From Candidatus Falkowbacteria bacterium CG10_big_fil_rev_8_21_14_0_10_39_11 (GTDB lineage Bacteria > Patescibacteriota > Patescibacteriia > UBA11705), in contig PFAP01000011.1 of NCBI GenBank assembly GCA_002773615.1, forward strand, positions 8,307-72,306: a stretch of 64,000 nt of DNA. The letters are read 5' to 3'. Of the stretch, positions 9,522 to 18,440 are shown piece by piece. A model generated the notes under the pieces. That model made no database searches. It had not been told where the DNA came from and saw only the letters and a program-made list of their open reading frames with translations. How positions within the stretch are numbered: the stretch's first letter is position 1; the number at the start of each line of letters is the position of its first letter. Position numbers and translations under genes: made by a program.

Positions 9522-9962
9522 TTAAAAAAAGTCATACAAAATACAGCTCGGTTCATAATACCCGCGAATGTTAAACTTCTCACGAACCCGAGTCATCAAA
9601 TCAGATCTAAAACTTCTGGCTTCAAAAATCATGTCACCACGATAATCATAAAATTGACGTGAAAACCAGTTTAATTTTGGCTTCTCCAAATCAACAACAA
9701 TCCATGAGCCCGAATCATTATTTAATCCCACAATTTTGTCAGCCTCCGTAAAACAACTGCATATCAAATCATTTGATGGTCTATTTGCGGCGGACAACAC
9801 TTGAGAATTTACGCAGTCAGTCAGTTCTTTCTTATAATCATTCAACTTCCAACCCAAATAAGCCGTAAAACAAAGTCTTGGAATAAAAACATATGAAACA
9901 AAAAGAATAACCAAAGCAACCAATATCCAAATAATAATTTTCCCGCCGTATAAATGTTTCAT
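9522..9962 (-). CDS. Hypothetical membrane-anchored protein (start at MKHLYGG)
   Basis: N-terminal TM then a soluble Cys-containing domain; no family recognised. Confidence 0.35.
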   Translation of the reverse strand: MKHLYGGKIIIWILVALVILFVSYVFIPRLCFTAYLGWKLNDYKKELTDCVNSQVLSAANRPSNDLICSCFTEADKIVGLNNDSGSWIVVDLEKPKLNWFSRQFYDYRGDMIFEARSFRSDLMTRVREKFNIRGYYEPSCILYDFF

Positions 9963-10007
9963 ATCCACCTCACAATTTATCGGTTCCTCTAAACTGAGAA
10001 CTCCAGA

Positions 10008-10703
10008 TTACCTCACCTTACACACTTTAAACCAATCTTTAATTTCATTTCTAATGGCCTCTAAATCTTTGAGTAAAAATTTATTTTCGGACACAAATTC
10101 CTGATTGACCAATTCCGGCTCTGACCGGAACCTTTGGATATAATAAGCATCAGCCCCCTTCACCTGTTTCGCCATTCTTATTATATCTTCCGCCGTATGC
10201 AATCCCGGCAATACTGTCGACCGAAATTCATGCGGCAAACCACTTTCTCTTATAATTTTAACACTTTGCTTGAGTTTATCCAAATCAACTTTCACTCCCA
10301 CCACCTGTTCATACTTGTTCCATGGCGCCTTAATATCCATTGCAATATAATCAATCAAATCTTTCTTCATTAACTTTTGAATAATATGAGGTCTGAGACC
10401 ATTGGTATCCAGTTTTATTTTGTAACCCAAATCTTTTATTGATTCGCACACCTCTACAATATCTTTTTGCAAAGTCGGCTCACCACCAGTAATACAAACT
10501 CCATCCAGCAATTTTTTTCTTGCTCGCAAAAAATCCAGCACATCCTTTTCCGTTTTCAAACCTTCGCCAAACTTCTCAGGCAAAACCAATGCCGGATTAT
10601 GACAAAAGTGACATCGAAAATTGCAGCCAACCGTAAAAATCGTGGCGGCTACCTGCCCCGGATAATCAAGCAATGTCATTTGTTGTAAACCACCTATTAA
10701 CAT
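10008..10703 (-). CDS. nrdG: Anaerobic ribonucleoside-triphosphate reductase activating protein (radical SAM)
   Basis: CNFRCHFCHNP (CxxxCxxC cluster motif) plus a glycine-rich SAM site GGEPTL; adjacent to nrdD. Confidence 0.85.
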   Translation of the reverse strand: MLIGGLQQMTLLDYPGQVAATIFTVGCNFRCHFCHNPALVLPEKFGEGLKTEKDVLDFLRARKKLLDGVCITGGEPTLQKDIVEVCESIKDLGYKIKLDTNGLRPHIIQKLMKKDLIDYIAMDIKAPWNKYEQVVGVKVDLDKLKQSVKIIRESGLPHEFRSTVLPGLHTAEDIIRMAKQVKGADAYYIQRFRSEPELVNQEFVSENKFLLKDLEAIRNEIKDWFKVCKVR

Positions 10704-10762
10704 AATGAGTAATTAGTAAAAAGTAATATGTAATAAGTAAAATGTAAAGAGTAATCAATAGT
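10704..10762. repeat. Tandem heptad repeat (NNNGTAA)x7-8 between the nrdD fragment and nrdG
   Basis: TAATGAGTAA TTAGTAA AAAGTAA TATGTAA TAAGTAA AATGTAA AGAGTAA, periodicity 7. Confidence 0.6.
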
Positions 10763-10983
10763 CAGGGAACAGTTGTGAGTTATCAGTTGTCAATAATGAG
10801 TATTTTGATTAAATTCGCACATTCGCAACAATCGCGAACCTCTATACCATTCACCTAATTTCCCGTTCTATTTTCCCGCTTCCAACCACTATCCACTATT
10901 CACATTTTCTCCAAATCCTCATTCAGATACAAAGCCCCCGACCAAAGCCGAGGGACAATATTTTGAAATAAAATTAACTACAA

Positions 10984-11169
10984 CTATTTTTCACAGCTAA
11001 CAGAAAGCATTTTATCAAACTCTTTTCGATCGCCAAATTCGGCCTTTTTACCTTTATTCCAACGATGAACTGGGCTCAAATATCCGACCACACGAGAATA
11101 CACCTCACACTTTTGTCTTTGTAGCTTTTCTGCTGGCATACTTTTTGTTTTTATTTTCTTGGTCGACAA
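10984..11169 (-). CDS. Separate small ORF encoding the NrdD glycyl-radical C-terminal domain (RVVGYL...NKGKKAEFGDR)
   Basis: CEVYSRVVGYLSPVHRWNKGKKAEFGDRKEF matches the class III RNR glycyl-radical signature. It lies 88 bp downstream of the nrdD stop, in a different frame. It has only a TTG or a weak-RBS ATG start. Confidence 0.55.
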   Translation of the reverse strand: MSTKKIKTKSMPAEKLQRQKCEVYSRVVGYLSPVHRWNKGKKAEFGDRKEFDKMLSVSCEK

Positions 11170-11257
11170 CTTTTTTTGTTATTGATCCAAGATCATGATT
11201 AAGCATTATTATTTTATAACTTTTTTAACAACTTTACCACCACAATATTTATCCACA

Positions 11258-13315
11258 TTACAGACTCCTTCTAAGCATTTCATCCGCATGCTCCACATAA
11301 CCCATTTCTTCATCACATTTGGGACAAAATTCGTGTTCACCAGACAAATATCCATGAACTGGACAAACACTAAAGGTTGGAGTGATTGTAAAATAAGGTA
11401 ATTTAAAATTTTCAGCAATTTTTTTGACTAAACTCTTGGTACTTTCCGCTGATGGCATATTTTCACCCAAAAAACCATGTAAAACCGTTCCACCGGTATA
11501 GCGAGTCTGCAAATCATCCTGCAATTTCAAAGCTTCAAAGATATCATCTGTATAGCCGACCGGCAATTGTGATGAATTTGTATAATATGGATCAGCTCCC
11601 TCTTCCTGCACCGCCTTTTCATTAGCTACAATAATATCAGGAAACTGTTTTTTGTCCAAACGAGCAAAACGATAAGCTGTACCTTCCGCTGGAGTCGCTT
11701 CCAAATTAAATAGCTGATTAGTCTCATTCTGGTAGTCCATGAGTCGCTCACGCATAAAATCAAGCGTCTGACGAGCGAATTTATGACCTTCAACCGTTGT
11801 AATATCTTGCCCCAACAGATTCAAGGCCGCTTCATTCATACCATTTAGTCCGATAGTATTAAAATGATTCTTCCAATATTCATCAAACCGCTCCTTGATT
11901 CCACTCAAATAATACATCGAGTATGGGTACAAACCATTATTGGTAAACTCTTCCAATACTTTTCGTTTGATATCCAAGCTTTGCTTGGCCAAATCCATCA
12001 ATTCACCAATTCTCTCAAAATATTCTTCCTTATCTTTGGCCACATAGGCAGCCCGAGGCAAGTTAATCGTTACCACTCCTATTGACCCAGTCAATGGATT
12101 GGCTCCAAACAACCCTCCGCCACGTTTTCTAAGCTCACGATTATCAAGCCGCAATCGACAACACATACTACGAGCATCATCAGGACTCATGTCACTATTA
12201 ATAAAATTAGAAAAATAAGGAATACCATACTTTGCGGTCATTTCCATTATCTTGTCAATAATAGCATTGTCCCAATCCCAATCAGCGGTCACATTATAGG
12301 TTGGAATTGGCCAACTAAGCACTCGACCACTCTTATCGCCCTCAATCATCACTTCAATAAAAGCCTGATTAAACATATCCATTTCCATTTGAAATTCACC
12401 ATATTTCTCTTTTTGTGGTTTTCCACCGATAATCACTGACTCCTCAGCCAAACTTTTAGGGACAAATAAGTCCAAAGTAACATTGGTAAAAGGTGTCTGA
12501 AAACCAACTCTGGTTGGCACATTGATATTGTACAAAAACATCTGGAGCTGCTGTCTTACTTGCTCGTAATCCAAGTTGTCATAACGAATAAACGGCGCGG
12601 CCAAAGTATCAAAACTGGAAACAGCCTGAGCGCCAGCAGCTTCGCCTTGTAAAGTATAGAAGAAATTGACCAACTGGCTGAGAGCTGTAGCAAAATGTTT
12701 TGGCGGTTTGCTCTGAACCTTTCCTCTCACCCCACCAAAACCACGCATAATTAAATCTTTAAAATCCCACCCACAACAATATGGCGCCAAAAGCTGTAAA
12801 TCATGAATGTGAAAATCACCATTCACATGAGCATCTTTGATATTTGGCGGATAAATCTTATTGAGCCAATAATGAGAGCTAATCGTAGAGGCGACATAAT
12901 TGTTCAATCCTTGCAGCGAATAATCCATATTGGAATTCTCTTTCACTCGCCAATCCTTGAGCTTCAAATAATCATCCATCAACTCATCAGAATTTATCAT
13001 GGCATCAAGATCTCTCATCTTAGCGTGTTGATCTCGATAAATAATATACGCCTTGGCCGCCTGAATATACTTGGCTTCAATCAATGTATTCTCGACCATA
13101 TCTTGAGCCTCTTCTACCGCTGGGATAGTTCGCTCATGAAATTTCTCATTCAATTTCTTGATTACCAAATCAGTCAATGATTCAGCCTCTTCATTTCCCC
13201 CTGATTTAGTTGCCTGCAATGCTTTAAAAATTGCCGTTTGAAGTTTCGCTTGGTCAAAATCAACAATGCGTCCATCACGCTTGCGAATTTGAATTATTTT
13301 GTTGCCTGCGTACAT
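11258..13315 (-). CDS. nrdD: Anaerobic ribonucleoside-triphosphate reductase catalytic body (ATP-cone + class III RNR barrel + C-terminal Zn site), lacking an in-frame glycyl-radical loop
   Basis: N-terminal ATP-cone (KIIQIRKRDGRIVDFDQAKLQTAI), long class III RNR core, C-terminal CPVHGYLSGEHEFCPKC. Confidence 0.85.
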   Translation of the reverse strand: MYAGNKIIQIRKRDGRIVDFDQAKLQTAIFKALQATKSGGNEEAESLTDLVIKKLNEKFHERTIPAVEEAQDMVENTLIEAKYIQAAKAYIIYRDQHAKMRDLDAMINSDELMDDYLKLKDWRVKENSNMDYSLQGLNNYVASTISSHYWLNKIYPPNIKDAHVNGDFHIHDLQLLAPYCCGWDFKDLIMRGFGGVRGKVQSKPPKHFATALSQLVNFFYTLQGEAAGAQAVSSFDTLAAPFIRYDNLDYEQVRQQLQMFLYNINVPTRVGFQTPFTNVTLDLFVPKSLAEESVIIGGKPQKEKYGEFQMEMDMFNQAFIEVMIEGDKSGRVLSWPIPTYNVTADWDWDNAIIDKIMEMTAKYGIPYFSNFINSDMSPDDARSMCCRLRLDNRELRKRGGGLFGANPLTGSIGVVTINLPRAAYVAKDKEEYFERIGELMDLAKQSLDIKRKVLEEFTNNGLYPYSMYYLSGIKERFDEYWKNHFNTIGLNGMNEAALNLLGQDITTVEGHKFARQTLDFMRERLMDYQNETNQLFNLEATPAEGTAYRFARLDKKQFPDIIVANEKAVQEEGADPYYTNSSQLPVGYTDDIFEALKLQDDLQTRYTGGTVLHGFLGENMPSAESTKSLVKKIAENFKLPYFTITPTFSVCPVHGYLSGEHEFCPKCDEEMGYVEHADEMLRRSL

Positions 13316-13389
13316 ACTCTAATTATATATATTTAATTATTATCATAAAAAACATTCGTAGTATTTGCCATCAATTCGTAAATTTGTTA

Positions 13390-13860
13390 TTACTTCTTCC
13401 TTATCAACTTCTTGACCTCTTCTTCAAACTCCTCAGCATCAGTGAATAACTTGTAAACGGAAGCAAAACGAATATAGGCCACTTTATCTACCTTTTTTAA
13501 ATTTTTCATCACAATCGCTCCAACATCTTCACTTGAAATTACCGATCCTTCTTTTTTATTTTTGATAAACACCTGAATATCCCGTTCAATATTATTCACC
13601 AACTTTTTGAACTTTTCAACATCAAACTCTCGCTTTTCCAACGCTCGTCTAAGGCCTTTTTCCATTTTTTCTCGCGAATAAGATTCTCGATTTCCATCAC
13701 GTTTCAAAACAGAAACATCAAGAAGCTCAACCTCTTCATAAGTTGAAAATCGAAAATTACACTTGCTGCACTCTCTTCGTCGACGAATAGCTAGGCCATC
13801 AGCCGCCACCCTTGAATCCAGCACTTTTGTGTCTTCATTGTAACAAACTGGGCATTTCAT
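13390..13860 (-). CDS. nrdR: Transcriptional repressor NrdR (Zn-ribbon + ATP-cone)
   Basis: MKCPVCYNEDTKVLDSRVAADGLAIRRRRECSKCNFRFSTYE is a near-textbook NrdR N-terminus. Confidence 0.9.
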   Translation of the reverse strand: MKCPVCYNEDTKVLDSRVAADGLAIRRRRECSKCNFRFSTYEEVELLDVSVLKRDGNRESYSREKMEKGLRRALEKREFDVEKFKKLVNNIERDIQVFIKNKKEGSVISSEDVGAIVMKNLKKVDKVAYIRFASVYKLFTDAEEFEEEVKKLIRKK

Positions 13861-13865
13861 AATTC

Positions 13866-13912
13866 TCCATATATGGTATTTATTAACTAAATTATACCAC
13901 TATATGTAGTAG
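13866..13912 (-). promoter_or_regulatory. Candidate NrdR-box pair upstream of nrdR (CCATATATGG and CCACTATATGTAGT)
   Basis: Two AT-centred imperfect palindromes ~29 bp apart, resembling the NrdR box consensus acaCwAtATaTwGtgt as I recall it. Confidence 0.3.
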
Positions 13913-14027
13913 CCGCCAAATATCCGGCCTTTACTCAAATTCTGGTAAAAAAACTAGTGTCGTTAAATTTAATACCGCAAAAAACTACACTTATCCACAA
14001 ACAAAAAAGAGGTTTGTTAACCTCTAA

Positions 14028-17162: not shown

Positions 17163-18440
17163 TTAAGACAACAACGATTTGAACCATTTTTTAGCTCCAG
17201 CTACCACATCTTTGGCCGATTGCAATTTACCGCCCAAATTAAACTTACTCTTTGATTTCTGATCCAACATCTGATACCCCCAAAGCACCAAGCCCAATGA
17301 ATTCACAAACACCACGTCATTGACCTTATCTATTGCCGTATTGAAATTTTGAACCACTCCGATAGCGACCGGCAACATGGTTTTTTTCTTGGCCAACTCC
17401 AATATTCCCTGCAGCTTAGCTCCACCACCGATCAACACAATACCAGCTGGCAACAAGCCGCTACGATTTATCTTTTGCAACTCATTATCAACTTTTTCAA
17501 AAATTTCTTCAACTCTGGCATTGATAATCTCAGTAATATATTGTTTTGAAAAAACTTGATCATCACCACCCAAATCACGTAAATTTATTTCTTCACTCTT
17601 ATCAATTGGCTCATAGGTAGCTCGCCCATATTCTAACTTTACTCGCTCAGAAACCTCAATCGATGTTTGCAAGCCAATCGCCAAATCAGCGGTAATATGA
17701 TCCGCTCCAATCGGTAAAACGGCTGTATGAATCACATCCCCCTCTTCAAACACCAACACGTTTGTCGTCGAAGCTCCAATATCCACCAACGCGACCCCCA
17801 ATTCCTTTTGTCTAACATTCAAAATAACTTCCGACGCGGCCAATGATGACAAAACAATATCATTAATATCCAATCCGGTTCGATAAACACACTTGGTCAA
17901 ATTTTTGATATGAGAGCTAAGACCTCTTACCACTTGTGTGGTAACTTCCAATCTCAAACCGGTCATCCCCACGGGATCTTTGACCCCACTTTGATTATCC
18001 ACAGTAAAAGATTTTGGGATCACATGCAACACATCATAATTGACCGGCGCTGCGACTGATCTAGCCGCATCAATTACTCGCTCAATATCTTCTTCTTGAA
18101 TCTCGCCACTGGTTCTTGGTATCGCAATTACTCCATTACTCTCTTGTGAATTGATATGTACCCCACCAATACTAATCCAAACATTTTCTATTGGTAAACC
18201 GATCATCCGCTCGGCCTTTTCAAGTGCAGTCGAAATACTGGAGACCGTATCTTCAATACTAACAACCGACCCCTTGCTCACACCTTGAGAAGGGACCTCT
18301 ACGACTCCGATAATATTCAATTGTTGATTTTCCTGATTTCTTGAAAATTGCCCTATCACTACTCTAATTTGTGATGATCCAATATCAAGACCCGCGATCA
18401 ATTCCTCTGGCATAGTTTTTGAAACTAGTTTCATATTCAA
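17163..18440 (-). CDS. ftsA: Cell division protein FtsA (actin-like ATPase)
   Basis: LIAGLDIGSSQIRVVIG phosphate-1 motif; ASF-fold length; immediately upstream of ftsZ. Confidence 0.9.
   Translation of the reverse strand: MNMKLVSKTMPEELIAGLDIGSSQIRVVIGQFSRNQENQQLNIIGVVEVPSQGVSKGSVVSIEDTVSSISTALEKAERMIGLPIENVWISIGGVHINSQESNGVIAIPRTSGEIQEEDIERVIDAARSVAAPVNYDVLHVIPKSFTVDNQSGVKDPVGMTGLRLEVTTQVVRGLSSHIKNLTKCVYRTGLDINDIVLSSLAASEVILNVRQKELGVALVDIGASTTNVLVFEEGDVIHTAVLPIGADHITADLAIGLQTSIEVSERVKLEYGRATYEPIDKSEEINLRDLGGDDQVFSKQYITEIINARVEEIFEKVDNELQKINRSGLLPAGIVLIGGGAKLQGILELAKKKTMLPVAIGVVQNFNTAIDKVNDVVFVNSLGLVLWGYQMLDQKSKSKFNLGGKLQSAKDVVAGAKKWFKSLLS

Follow-up and report, generated by a model that had tools for sequence, protein, structure and literature searches.

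A class III ribonucleotide reductase (RNR) whose catalytic body and glycyl-radical loop are encoded by two separate open reading frames (ORFs) was found in a 64,000-nt stretch of DNA from Candidatus Falkowbacteria bacterium CG10_big_fil_rev_8_21_14_0_10_39_11 (contig PFAP01000011.1, positions 8,307 to 72,306; the whole stretch is called the window below). The body of the reductase, nrdD, stops shortly after its zinc site, and the loop with the radical glycine is carried by a small ORF downstream (the mini-ORF, encoding the mini-protein). It was established that the gene is split and that the split is conserved, that both parts are under purifying selection and have translation signals of their own, and that together they are collinear with a single-chain NrdD. 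An earlier reading of the same DNA, here called the original prediction, had offered three explanations for the split: assembly indels, a decaying gene, or a two-piece class III RNR similar in concept to GrcA/YfiD. The last of these was supported by the split itself, by conservation and selection and by the separate translation signals. Sequence comparison indicates that the pair is very probably a genuine and conserved two-polypeptide class III RNR, for which non-covalent assembly and activation by NrdG would be expected.

The two reading frames as probable parts of one enzyme

The end of the body ORF at a TAA just past a Cys/His metal site was confirmed (Table 1). The C-terminus of the body reads ...CPVHGYLSGEHEFCPKCDEEMGYVEHADEMLRRSL and then TAA, or, with the fuller tail, ...TPTFSVCPVHGYLSGEHEFCPKCDEEMGYVEHADEMLRRSL-TAA, and the chain stops 18 amino acids (aa) past the zinc site. 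The small ORF, at 10984..11169 on the minus strand when counted from a TTG codon, carries ...QKCEVYSRVVGYLSPVHRWNKGKKAEFGDRKEF... in a frame different from that of the body, and the glycyl-radical signature was thus located where the original prediction had placed it.

The NrdD profiles were found to be divided between the two ORFs, which together with the ORFs themselves confirmed that nrdD is split and that the loop has an ORF of its own. In the PF13597 (NRDD) profile of 562 positions, the body accounted for 1-530 with a score of 613 bits, and residues 9-41 of the mini-protein for the last 32 positions, 531-562, with 39.4 bits against a cut-off of 26.2. PF13597 was the only Pfam family matched by the mini-protein at E<=0.01. 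In NCBIfam NF006126 (684 positions) the body covered 3-656 (1044 bits, cut-off 548) and the small ORF 649-682. Alignment to a known NrdD structure, proposed earlier as a check, gave a corresponding result. Against Thermotoga maritima NrdD (TmNrdD, 4COI) the alignment of the body reached CPvCgk at residue 610, and that of the small ORF covered 610-646, KAKVDEYMRIVGYLVPVSAFNK..., with all zinc ligands on the body. The complementarity of the two ORFs in Pfam, NCBIfam and TmNrdD is far beyond chance.

The body was found to contain an ATP-cone (aa 8-98), PYCCGW (178-183), the finger-loop motif CCRLR (385-389) and C651-x2-H654...C664-x2-C667. An NSN at aa 127-129 may match the NxN flap of Prevotella copri NrdD, as judged by eye and without an alignment. 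From the established NrdD mechanism, CCRLR should bear the thiyl-radical cysteine that takes the radical from the glycine. The barrel with its finger-loop cysteines and a four-ligand Cys/His zinc site (a predicted metal site) are on the body, as in other NrdD proteins. The RVxGY loop, otherwise part of the barrel polypeptide, is in a separate ORF 118 nt downstream. As a pair, body and mini-protein are without missing NrdD parts, and the chain is broken just past the last zinc ligand.

The true start of the mini-ORF is almost certainly the ATG at 11139, which gives a protein of 51 aa, rather than the TTG at 11169. A Met codon was observed exactly 11 codons ahead of EVYSR in each of the 19 Falkowbacteria-like loci, and in public annotation the mini-ORF is likewise called with 51 aa. 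Counted to this ATG, the true spacer is 118 nt (11140-11257). The original prediction had described 88 nt with stops in all three frames; the stops are indeed present in 11170-11257, the interval counted from the TTG, but the length had to be revised. Its concern that only a TTG or an ATG with a weak ribosome-binding site (RBS) was available became moot, as the ATG position is conserved and use of Shine-Dalgarno (SD) sequences is low genome-wide. In the window, an SD-like core at -18 to -4 was found for 3 of the 46 ORFs of at least 150 aa. Leaders are A/T-rich, 35 of the 46 stop codons are TAA, and initiation in this genome evidently does not depend on SD pairing. In every Halanaerobiales locus, GGAGG was found 6-9 nt before the ATG of the mini-ORF. 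A terminator-like hairpin behind the mini-ORF of Halanaerobium congolense was noted by eye.

Conservation of the split was studied with the 120 closest body homologues, which are representatives of clusters at 90% identity and are 68-100% identical to the body of the window. The Gly motif was absent in 119 of them. The zinc pattern C-x2-H...C-x2-C was kept in all 120, and all ended in CPxC-DEE(M/I)GY-x-(E/D) and, past it, up to 40 residues of variable tail. A search with the small ORF resulted in 136 protein matches, all of 43-105 aa; Falkowbacteria, Kuenenbacteria, Parcubacteria and Synergistales were among the sources. When 1.84 billion cluster representatives were searched exhaustively by phmmer with the mini-protein, 2623 matches were obtained, and the best 150 of these were all 48-147 aa long. 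The split occurs in several Patescibacteria classes, in Halanaerobiales and in Synergistales. Going by such matches, the arrangement is present in hundreds of genomes, cultivable Halanaerobium included. The comparison with sister genomes that had been suggested earlier was thus positive, the same split recurring in more than 100 homologues.

Selection was estimated across the 19 Falkowbacteria-like loci, for which the proportion of synonymous differences (pS) was about 0.8 and thus saturated. The ratio of nonsynonymous to synonymous proportions (pN/pS) was 0.17 for the mini-ORF as a whole and 0.21 over its first 11 codons. Within the body it was 0.13 for the last 90 codons and 0.12 for the 12 codons of CPxCDEEMGYxE. 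The low pN/pS and the invariant position of the Met mean that both new ends are kept as protein and not as nucleotides.

Stand-alone forms in relatives and alternative explanations

A rare fusion within the split clade was found at locus L031 (728 aa; CPKCDEDDMSPQKLERQKCEVYSR), where CPKCDEDD-MSPQKLERQKC-EVYSR is collinear with body and mini-protein. As it retains the Met and the N-terminal residues of the mini-protein, this is either a re-fusion or a pre-split state. A second, unlinked and intact mini-ORF was observed in at least ten related genomes that also have the nrdD-linked copy. The unlinked copy is located right behind mraZ-rsmH (L019, L022 and L023) or behind a deoxynucleoside kinase (dNK) gene (L025 and L032). 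UBA11705, with a body 91% identical to that of the window, has such an extra copy; the window itself contains one mini-ORF and no rsmH. Mini-ORFs with no nrdD body upstream were seen at L020, L024, L026, L027, L028 and L036. One subgroup of the unlinked copies has a distinct 13-residue N-terminus, MSPxxTQxKRQKC. Many stand-alone mini-proteins have RVVGF instead of RVVGY (Orenia, L041 3486-3641; P0249, P0251, P0254, P0262, P0267 and others). A tblastn search of a phage collection with the mini-protein gave three weak and uninformative matches, of which two coincided with genes annotated as NrdD and the third fell in a record without annotation.

A different arrangement was found in loci of the Moranbacteria/Parcubacteria type, where a full-length NrdD (CPKCVVEQKTEVYSRVVGY...) is followed by an ORF of 87-96 aa (L039, L042, L048, L055, L056, L059, L063, L066, L071, L072 and L077). 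This ORF, MEKYTCHDCGK...CKACH...EVYSRVVGYIRPV..., is a complete zinc-ribbon and Gly-loop domain with a pN/pS of 0.21. At L075, in the Moranbacteria-type clade, NrdD is without a Gly loop in cis and a stand-alone domain of 102 aa alone remains. From its sequence, L075 looks like an intermediate in which the C-terminal module was duplicated and the covalent copy was then lost.

The relatives in which a mini-protein accompanies a full-length NrdD, and the unlinked extra copies, would also fit an explanation in which there is no obligate enzyme. The mini-protein would then be a regulator, or an oxygen-damage spare for another, full-length NrdD, and the body would be otherwise employed. This is improbable in view of the clade to which the window belongs, where 119 of the 120 bodies lack a Gly loop of their own. 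The body keeps its finger-loop cysteines, zinc site and ATP-cone and is tightly linked to the mini-ORF and nrdG. Furthermore, no full-length copy was found for the split-carrying genomes among the best 80 of 216 loci in a scan of 185,579 species genomes.

A single chain could alternatively be restored from the two ORFs by self-splicing of an intron, known from phage T4 nrdD, by programmed frameshifting or bypass, or by a trans-splicing split intein. RNR genes, phage nrdD included, are often hosts of introns and inteins (PMC3653736), and several relatives probably have inteins elsewhere in the body. The gap between the body stop and the mini-ORF ATG nevertheless varies from a 4-nt overlap to about 970 nt across relatives. 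Most Falkowbacteria-like loci have 46-132 nt, a few have 199-411 nt, and about 900 nt was also seen. Loci of the Azambacteria, Dojkabacteria, WS6 and Saccharibacteria type have 17-37 nt, and other Patescibacteria have a 4-nt overlap or 21-27 nt. The gap can even hold an entire nrdG. The order body-nrdG-mini-ORF was found in Halanaerobium congolense DSM 11287, H. saccharolyticum, H. kushneri ATCC 700103 and Orenia metallireducens, and a whole nrdG also lies between the pieces in a 2.95-Mb Synergistales contig. Searching the whole window against Rfam at the gathering threshold gave three tRNAs only, and at E<=10 the region 10900-11500 gave three noise matches and no intron or ribozyme. With a z-score of -0.63, the RNA fold of the junction was no more structured than that of shuffled sequence. 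On these grounds group I and group II introns were rejected.

Recoding and protein splicing were rejected as well. The frame pairs 0>1, 2>2, 0>2 and 1>2 were all observed among close relatives, and differed even between bodies that are 91% identical. Three in-frame stops would have to be passed in the window, and the spacer is unconserved save for a DnaA-box motif, neither of which fits a programmed frameshift or bypass. For a split intein, the body tail of 7-40 unconserved aa past GYxE and the N-terminus of the mini-ORF are far too short to be intein halves; about 10 aa (..RQK) precede the Cys of the mini-protein, and His-Asn is absent. The residues that flank the break are kept as amino acids and not as nucleotides. 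Restoration of a single chain is accordingly regarded as very improbable. Several relatives have bodies about 330-470 aa longer than usual, probably owing to inteins. Body ORFs of 998-1158 aa were noted at L004, L013, L021, L029, L052 and L067, further cases at P0170, P0179 and P0183, and an L065 ORF starting at 380. In H. congolense, ...GIITHQ followed by CCRL suggests an insertion right before the finger-loop cysteines.

Decay of nrdD, which would have left a truncated body and a C-terminal relic, was the second explanation of the original prediction. The tail past GYxE and the spacer are unconserved and A/T-rich, as would be expected of a pseudogene, but pN/pS values of 0.12-0.21 on both sides of the break, at saturated synonymous sites, refuted decay. 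The position of the ATG is invariant, nrdG and nrdR are intact, and the split persists across Patescibacteria classes, Halanaerobiales and Synergistales, so that decay is extremely improbable. Two ORFs in different frames of a metagenome assembly might suggest that the break is due to indels from sequencing or assembly and that the true nrdD is one continuous frame. This is practically out of the question, because the 362-nt region is byte-identical in five independent contigs from five samples (JGI 3300004208 and 3300025850; ENA ERZ27293400, ERZ27293413 and ERZ27293414; the identical body was found in six contigs), a continuous ORF would require the removal of three in-frame TAA codons, and the split recurs in cultured isolates and in over 100 homologues, with identities as low as 68%.

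Some points weigh against a two-polypeptide RNR. The case for function is built on sequence comparison, and the advantage of a replaceable radical part, discussed below, is an analogy with GrcA and not a result. Some of the short database proteins may be gene fragments cut at contig ends. The mini-ORF of the window has no SD sequence, but this is normal for the genome. Finally, the neighbour-joining tree, in which the split state is widespread and fused forms are nested among split ones, is a rough one, built from a sample that was picked by mini-ORF similarity and is hence biased.

The operon and the spacer

The features of the locus are listed in Table 1. The activase NrdG was found to be encoded near nrdD, as is characteristic of a class III RNR (TIGR02495). 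The hairpin behind the mini-ORF was the sole terminator-like site in 9900-14000, by consensus match only. The synteny ftsA-ftsZ-...-nrdR-nrdD body-mini-ORF-nrdG is common to the window and a distant Patescibacterium (L086/L087) and ties the RNR operon to the cell-division cluster. An ORF of 33 aa, MLNHDLGSITKK..., at 11105-11206 on the minus strand is annotated as a gene in ENA, at the place where the spacer passes into the mini-ORF. It is probably spurious, as it has no family match and the spacer is unconserved.

Table 1. Positions of the RNR genes, motifs and signals in the window
Feature	Position	Strand	Remarks
nrdR, 156 aa, transcriptional repressor of RNR genes	13390..13860	-	Directly upstream of nrdD; TIGR00244, 174.6 bits (cut-off 124.65)
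nrdD body, 685 aa + TAA (stop 11258-11260)	11258..13315	-	Pfam ATP-cone and NRDD; without Gly-radical loop
Finger-loop CCRLR codons (aa 385-389)	12149..12163	-	Aligned to CCRL of TmNrdD
Zinc-ribbon ligands CPVH...CPKC (C651/H654/C664/C667), retained on body	11315..11365	-	
Spacer, 118 nt, A/T-rich, body stop to mini-ORF ATG	11140..11257	-	
DnaA-box 9-mer right behind body stop codon	11249..11257	-	TTATCCACA on + strand, TGTGGATAA in gene orientation
Glycyl-radical mini-ORF, 51 aa + TAG	10984..11139	-	Sequence MPAEKLQRQKCEVYSRVVGYLSPVHRWNKGKKAEFGDRKEFDKMLSVSCEK
Expected radical glycine, Gly19 of mini-protein	codon 11083-11085	-	
Terminator-like hairpin, 8 pairs (6 G-C), then CTTTGTATCT	10935..10954	-	About 30 nt past mini-ORF stop
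nrdG, 231 aa, radical-SAM activase	10008..10703	-	TIGR02495 NrdG2, 219.1 bits (cut-off 131.15); Pfam Radical_SAM and Fer4_12

In the junction alignment of the five closest loci, an invariant 11-mer, TGTGGATAAAT, was observed directly past the stop codon, and the remaining spacer had diverged. The 11-mer lies 117-123 nt ahead of the mini-ORF ATG in all five (the spacers of L002, L003, L005 and L006 among them). A -10-like element, TATAAAAT/TATAAT, follows about 38 nt downstream of the DnaA box. A second exact DnaA box was found at 13991-13999, between a HAD-family gene and nrdR, and another at 17995-18003; presumably about 0.8 exact boxes per window would occur by chance, according to our own estimate from base composition. 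Relatives also have DnaA boxes ahead of their nrdR/nrdD region. These sequences suggest a possible input of DnaA into the operon, perhaps through an internal promoter for the radical subunit. A sigma-70 promoter scan gave no site in the spacer above a simple threshold, and for this reason only the conserved DnaA box and the -10-like element point to an internal promoter.

An alternative frame across the junction, ...CLEGVCNVDKYCGG..., had been taken earlier as a hint of accumulated frameshifts, and this did not hold. The frame of CLEGVCNVDKYCGG is that of the mini-ORF, yet three TAA codons intervene. The 91%-identical relative does not share the peptide, whose NVDKY is the translation of TGTGGATAAAT, the conserved DnaA-box motif. 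As the frame relation also varies among relatives, the peptide is no relic.

Proposed mechanism and comparison with known systems

In the proposed mechanism, the body would supply the ATP-cone, the barrel, the finger-loop cysteines and the zinc ribbon, and the mini-protein would supply the RVVGY loop and the C-terminal tail. NrdG, with S-adenosylmethionine, would remove a hydrogen from Gly19 of the mini-protein, and the latter would dock non-covalently in the barrel, at the place of the covalent C-terminus of an ordinary NrdD. The glycyl radical would then be handed to the finger-loop cysteine (CCRLR), and nucleotide reduction would begin. The conserved new ends, DEE(M/I)GY of the body and M-x3-K-x-x-RQKC of the mini-protein, are a candidate docking interface. 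Cryo-electron microscopy and hydrogen-deuterium exchange mass spectrometry of P. copri NrdD showed that the glycyl radical domain is mobile, semi-independent and at times fully disordered with the core intact (PMC11226230). A detachable version of this domain is therefore plausible.

Oxygen kills glycyl radical enzymes by cleavage of the chain at the radical glycine, and GrcA/YfiD, which serves pyruvate formate-lyase, is the one repair strategy known (PMC13450708). Because of this cleavage a detached radical subunit could be cheap to replace, as oxygen damage would cost a 5-kDa piece and not a 79-kDa enzyme. Our judgement is evenly divided on whether such replacement, conceived by analogy, is the reason for the split. 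The extra paralogues and the spare-type ORFs are compatible with a replaceable part, short of proof. A more general proposal, which could as well prove wrong as right, is that class III RNRs own an autonomous family of glycyl-radical proteins. It would comprise the obligate detached subunits (the window and Halanaerobium), the unlinked paralogues (mraZ-rsmH or dNK) and the zinc-ribbon and Gly-loop mini-proteins beside full-length NrdD. The radical piece would be a consumable cofactor, expressed separately, that is exchanged after oxygen damage, and the split would have arisen by duplication of the C-terminus and loss of the copy in cis, with L075 as the intermediate.

A free 5-kDa radical loop would be the minimal natural substrate for activation by NrdG and for radical hand-over. 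The split may also help to explain how DNA synthesis is kept up in tiny-genome Patescibacteria at oxic-anoxic interfaces. The mini-ORFs are now annotated as 'hypothetical' or missed by annotation pipelines, and a length filter removes them from phylogenetic surveys. Since Halanaerobium, which is cultivable, carries the split, direct tests of the idea are feasible.

Neither a bacterial NrdD split before the Gly loop nor an NrdD-type spare part was found described in the literature covered, which consisted of full texts with most subscription journals outside. The known system closest in concept is GrcA/YfiD, a small separate protein with just the Gly-radical module of pyruvate formate-lyase (PFL); the radical-SAM activase of PFL acts on it, and it takes its place in the large subunit non-covalently (PMC13450708). 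Like GrcA, the mini-protein (51 aa) stands alone and is essentially one glycine-radical module. However, GrcA is in the PFL-type Gly_radical family and the mini-protein matches the NrdD family only. GrcA moreover coexists with full-length PFL and rescues PFL cleaved by oxygen, whereas the body in the window is without a loop of its own. Because it is the sole Gly loop for its body, the mini-protein would be obligate rather than a spare. A spare arrangement of the GrcA/YfiD type, with full-length NrdD and an extra mini-protein, is found in the Moranbacteria-type relatives and not in the window. According to a review of June 2026, spare-part proteins are known for formate lyases only, and their existence for other glycyl radical enzymes is listed as open (PMC13450708). 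If true, the system described here would be the first outside the formate lyases and would answer that question.

Among the RNRs, the split class II enzyme NrdJa/NrdJb of Pseudomonas aeruginosa, also found in Thermus phage phiYS40 (PMC9669993; PMC3653736), similarly has its catalytic chain distributed over two consecutive genes, the barrel first and the C-terminal module second, with non-covalent assembly. It differs in being of the adenosylcobalamin class and in that the detached part is a zinc finger for re-reduction; in the split NrdD it is the radical site that is detached, and the zinc site remains with the body. In Aeromonas phage Aeh1, a working RNR large subunit is reported to form from two separately translated fragments, NrdA-a and NrdA-b (PMC3045599). 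It is reportedly a class I enzyme of one phage lineage, split by insertion of a homing endonuclease gene, whereas the gap described here is without a mobile element. The NrdD split is, as judged from its distribution among the homologues, ancient and widespread.

In T4 sunY/nrdD, Lactococcus phage 949 and Clostridium phage c-st, nrdD is interrupted by group I introns or inteins (PMC3653736) and likewise appears as two ORFs in the DNA. Splicing restores one chain in these phages, in contrast to the split described here, which has no ribozyme or intein, a variable gap, and an independent ATG and, in relatives, an independent RBS. Compared with canonical NrdD (T4, T. maritima 4COI/4U3E and P. copri 8P23), the ATP-cone, the CC barrel, the zinc site, the RVxGY loop and the tail are present in the same order, with nrdG adjacent. 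The difference is that the chain breaks a few residues past the final zinc ligand, some 10 residues ahead of the strand that leads to the glycine, and that the split forms have additional conserved residues at the new ends, DEE(M/I)GY in the body and M-x3-K-x-x-R-Q-K-C in the mini-protein. NrdD, NrdG and NrdR are themselves ordinary, and it is the architecture that differs.

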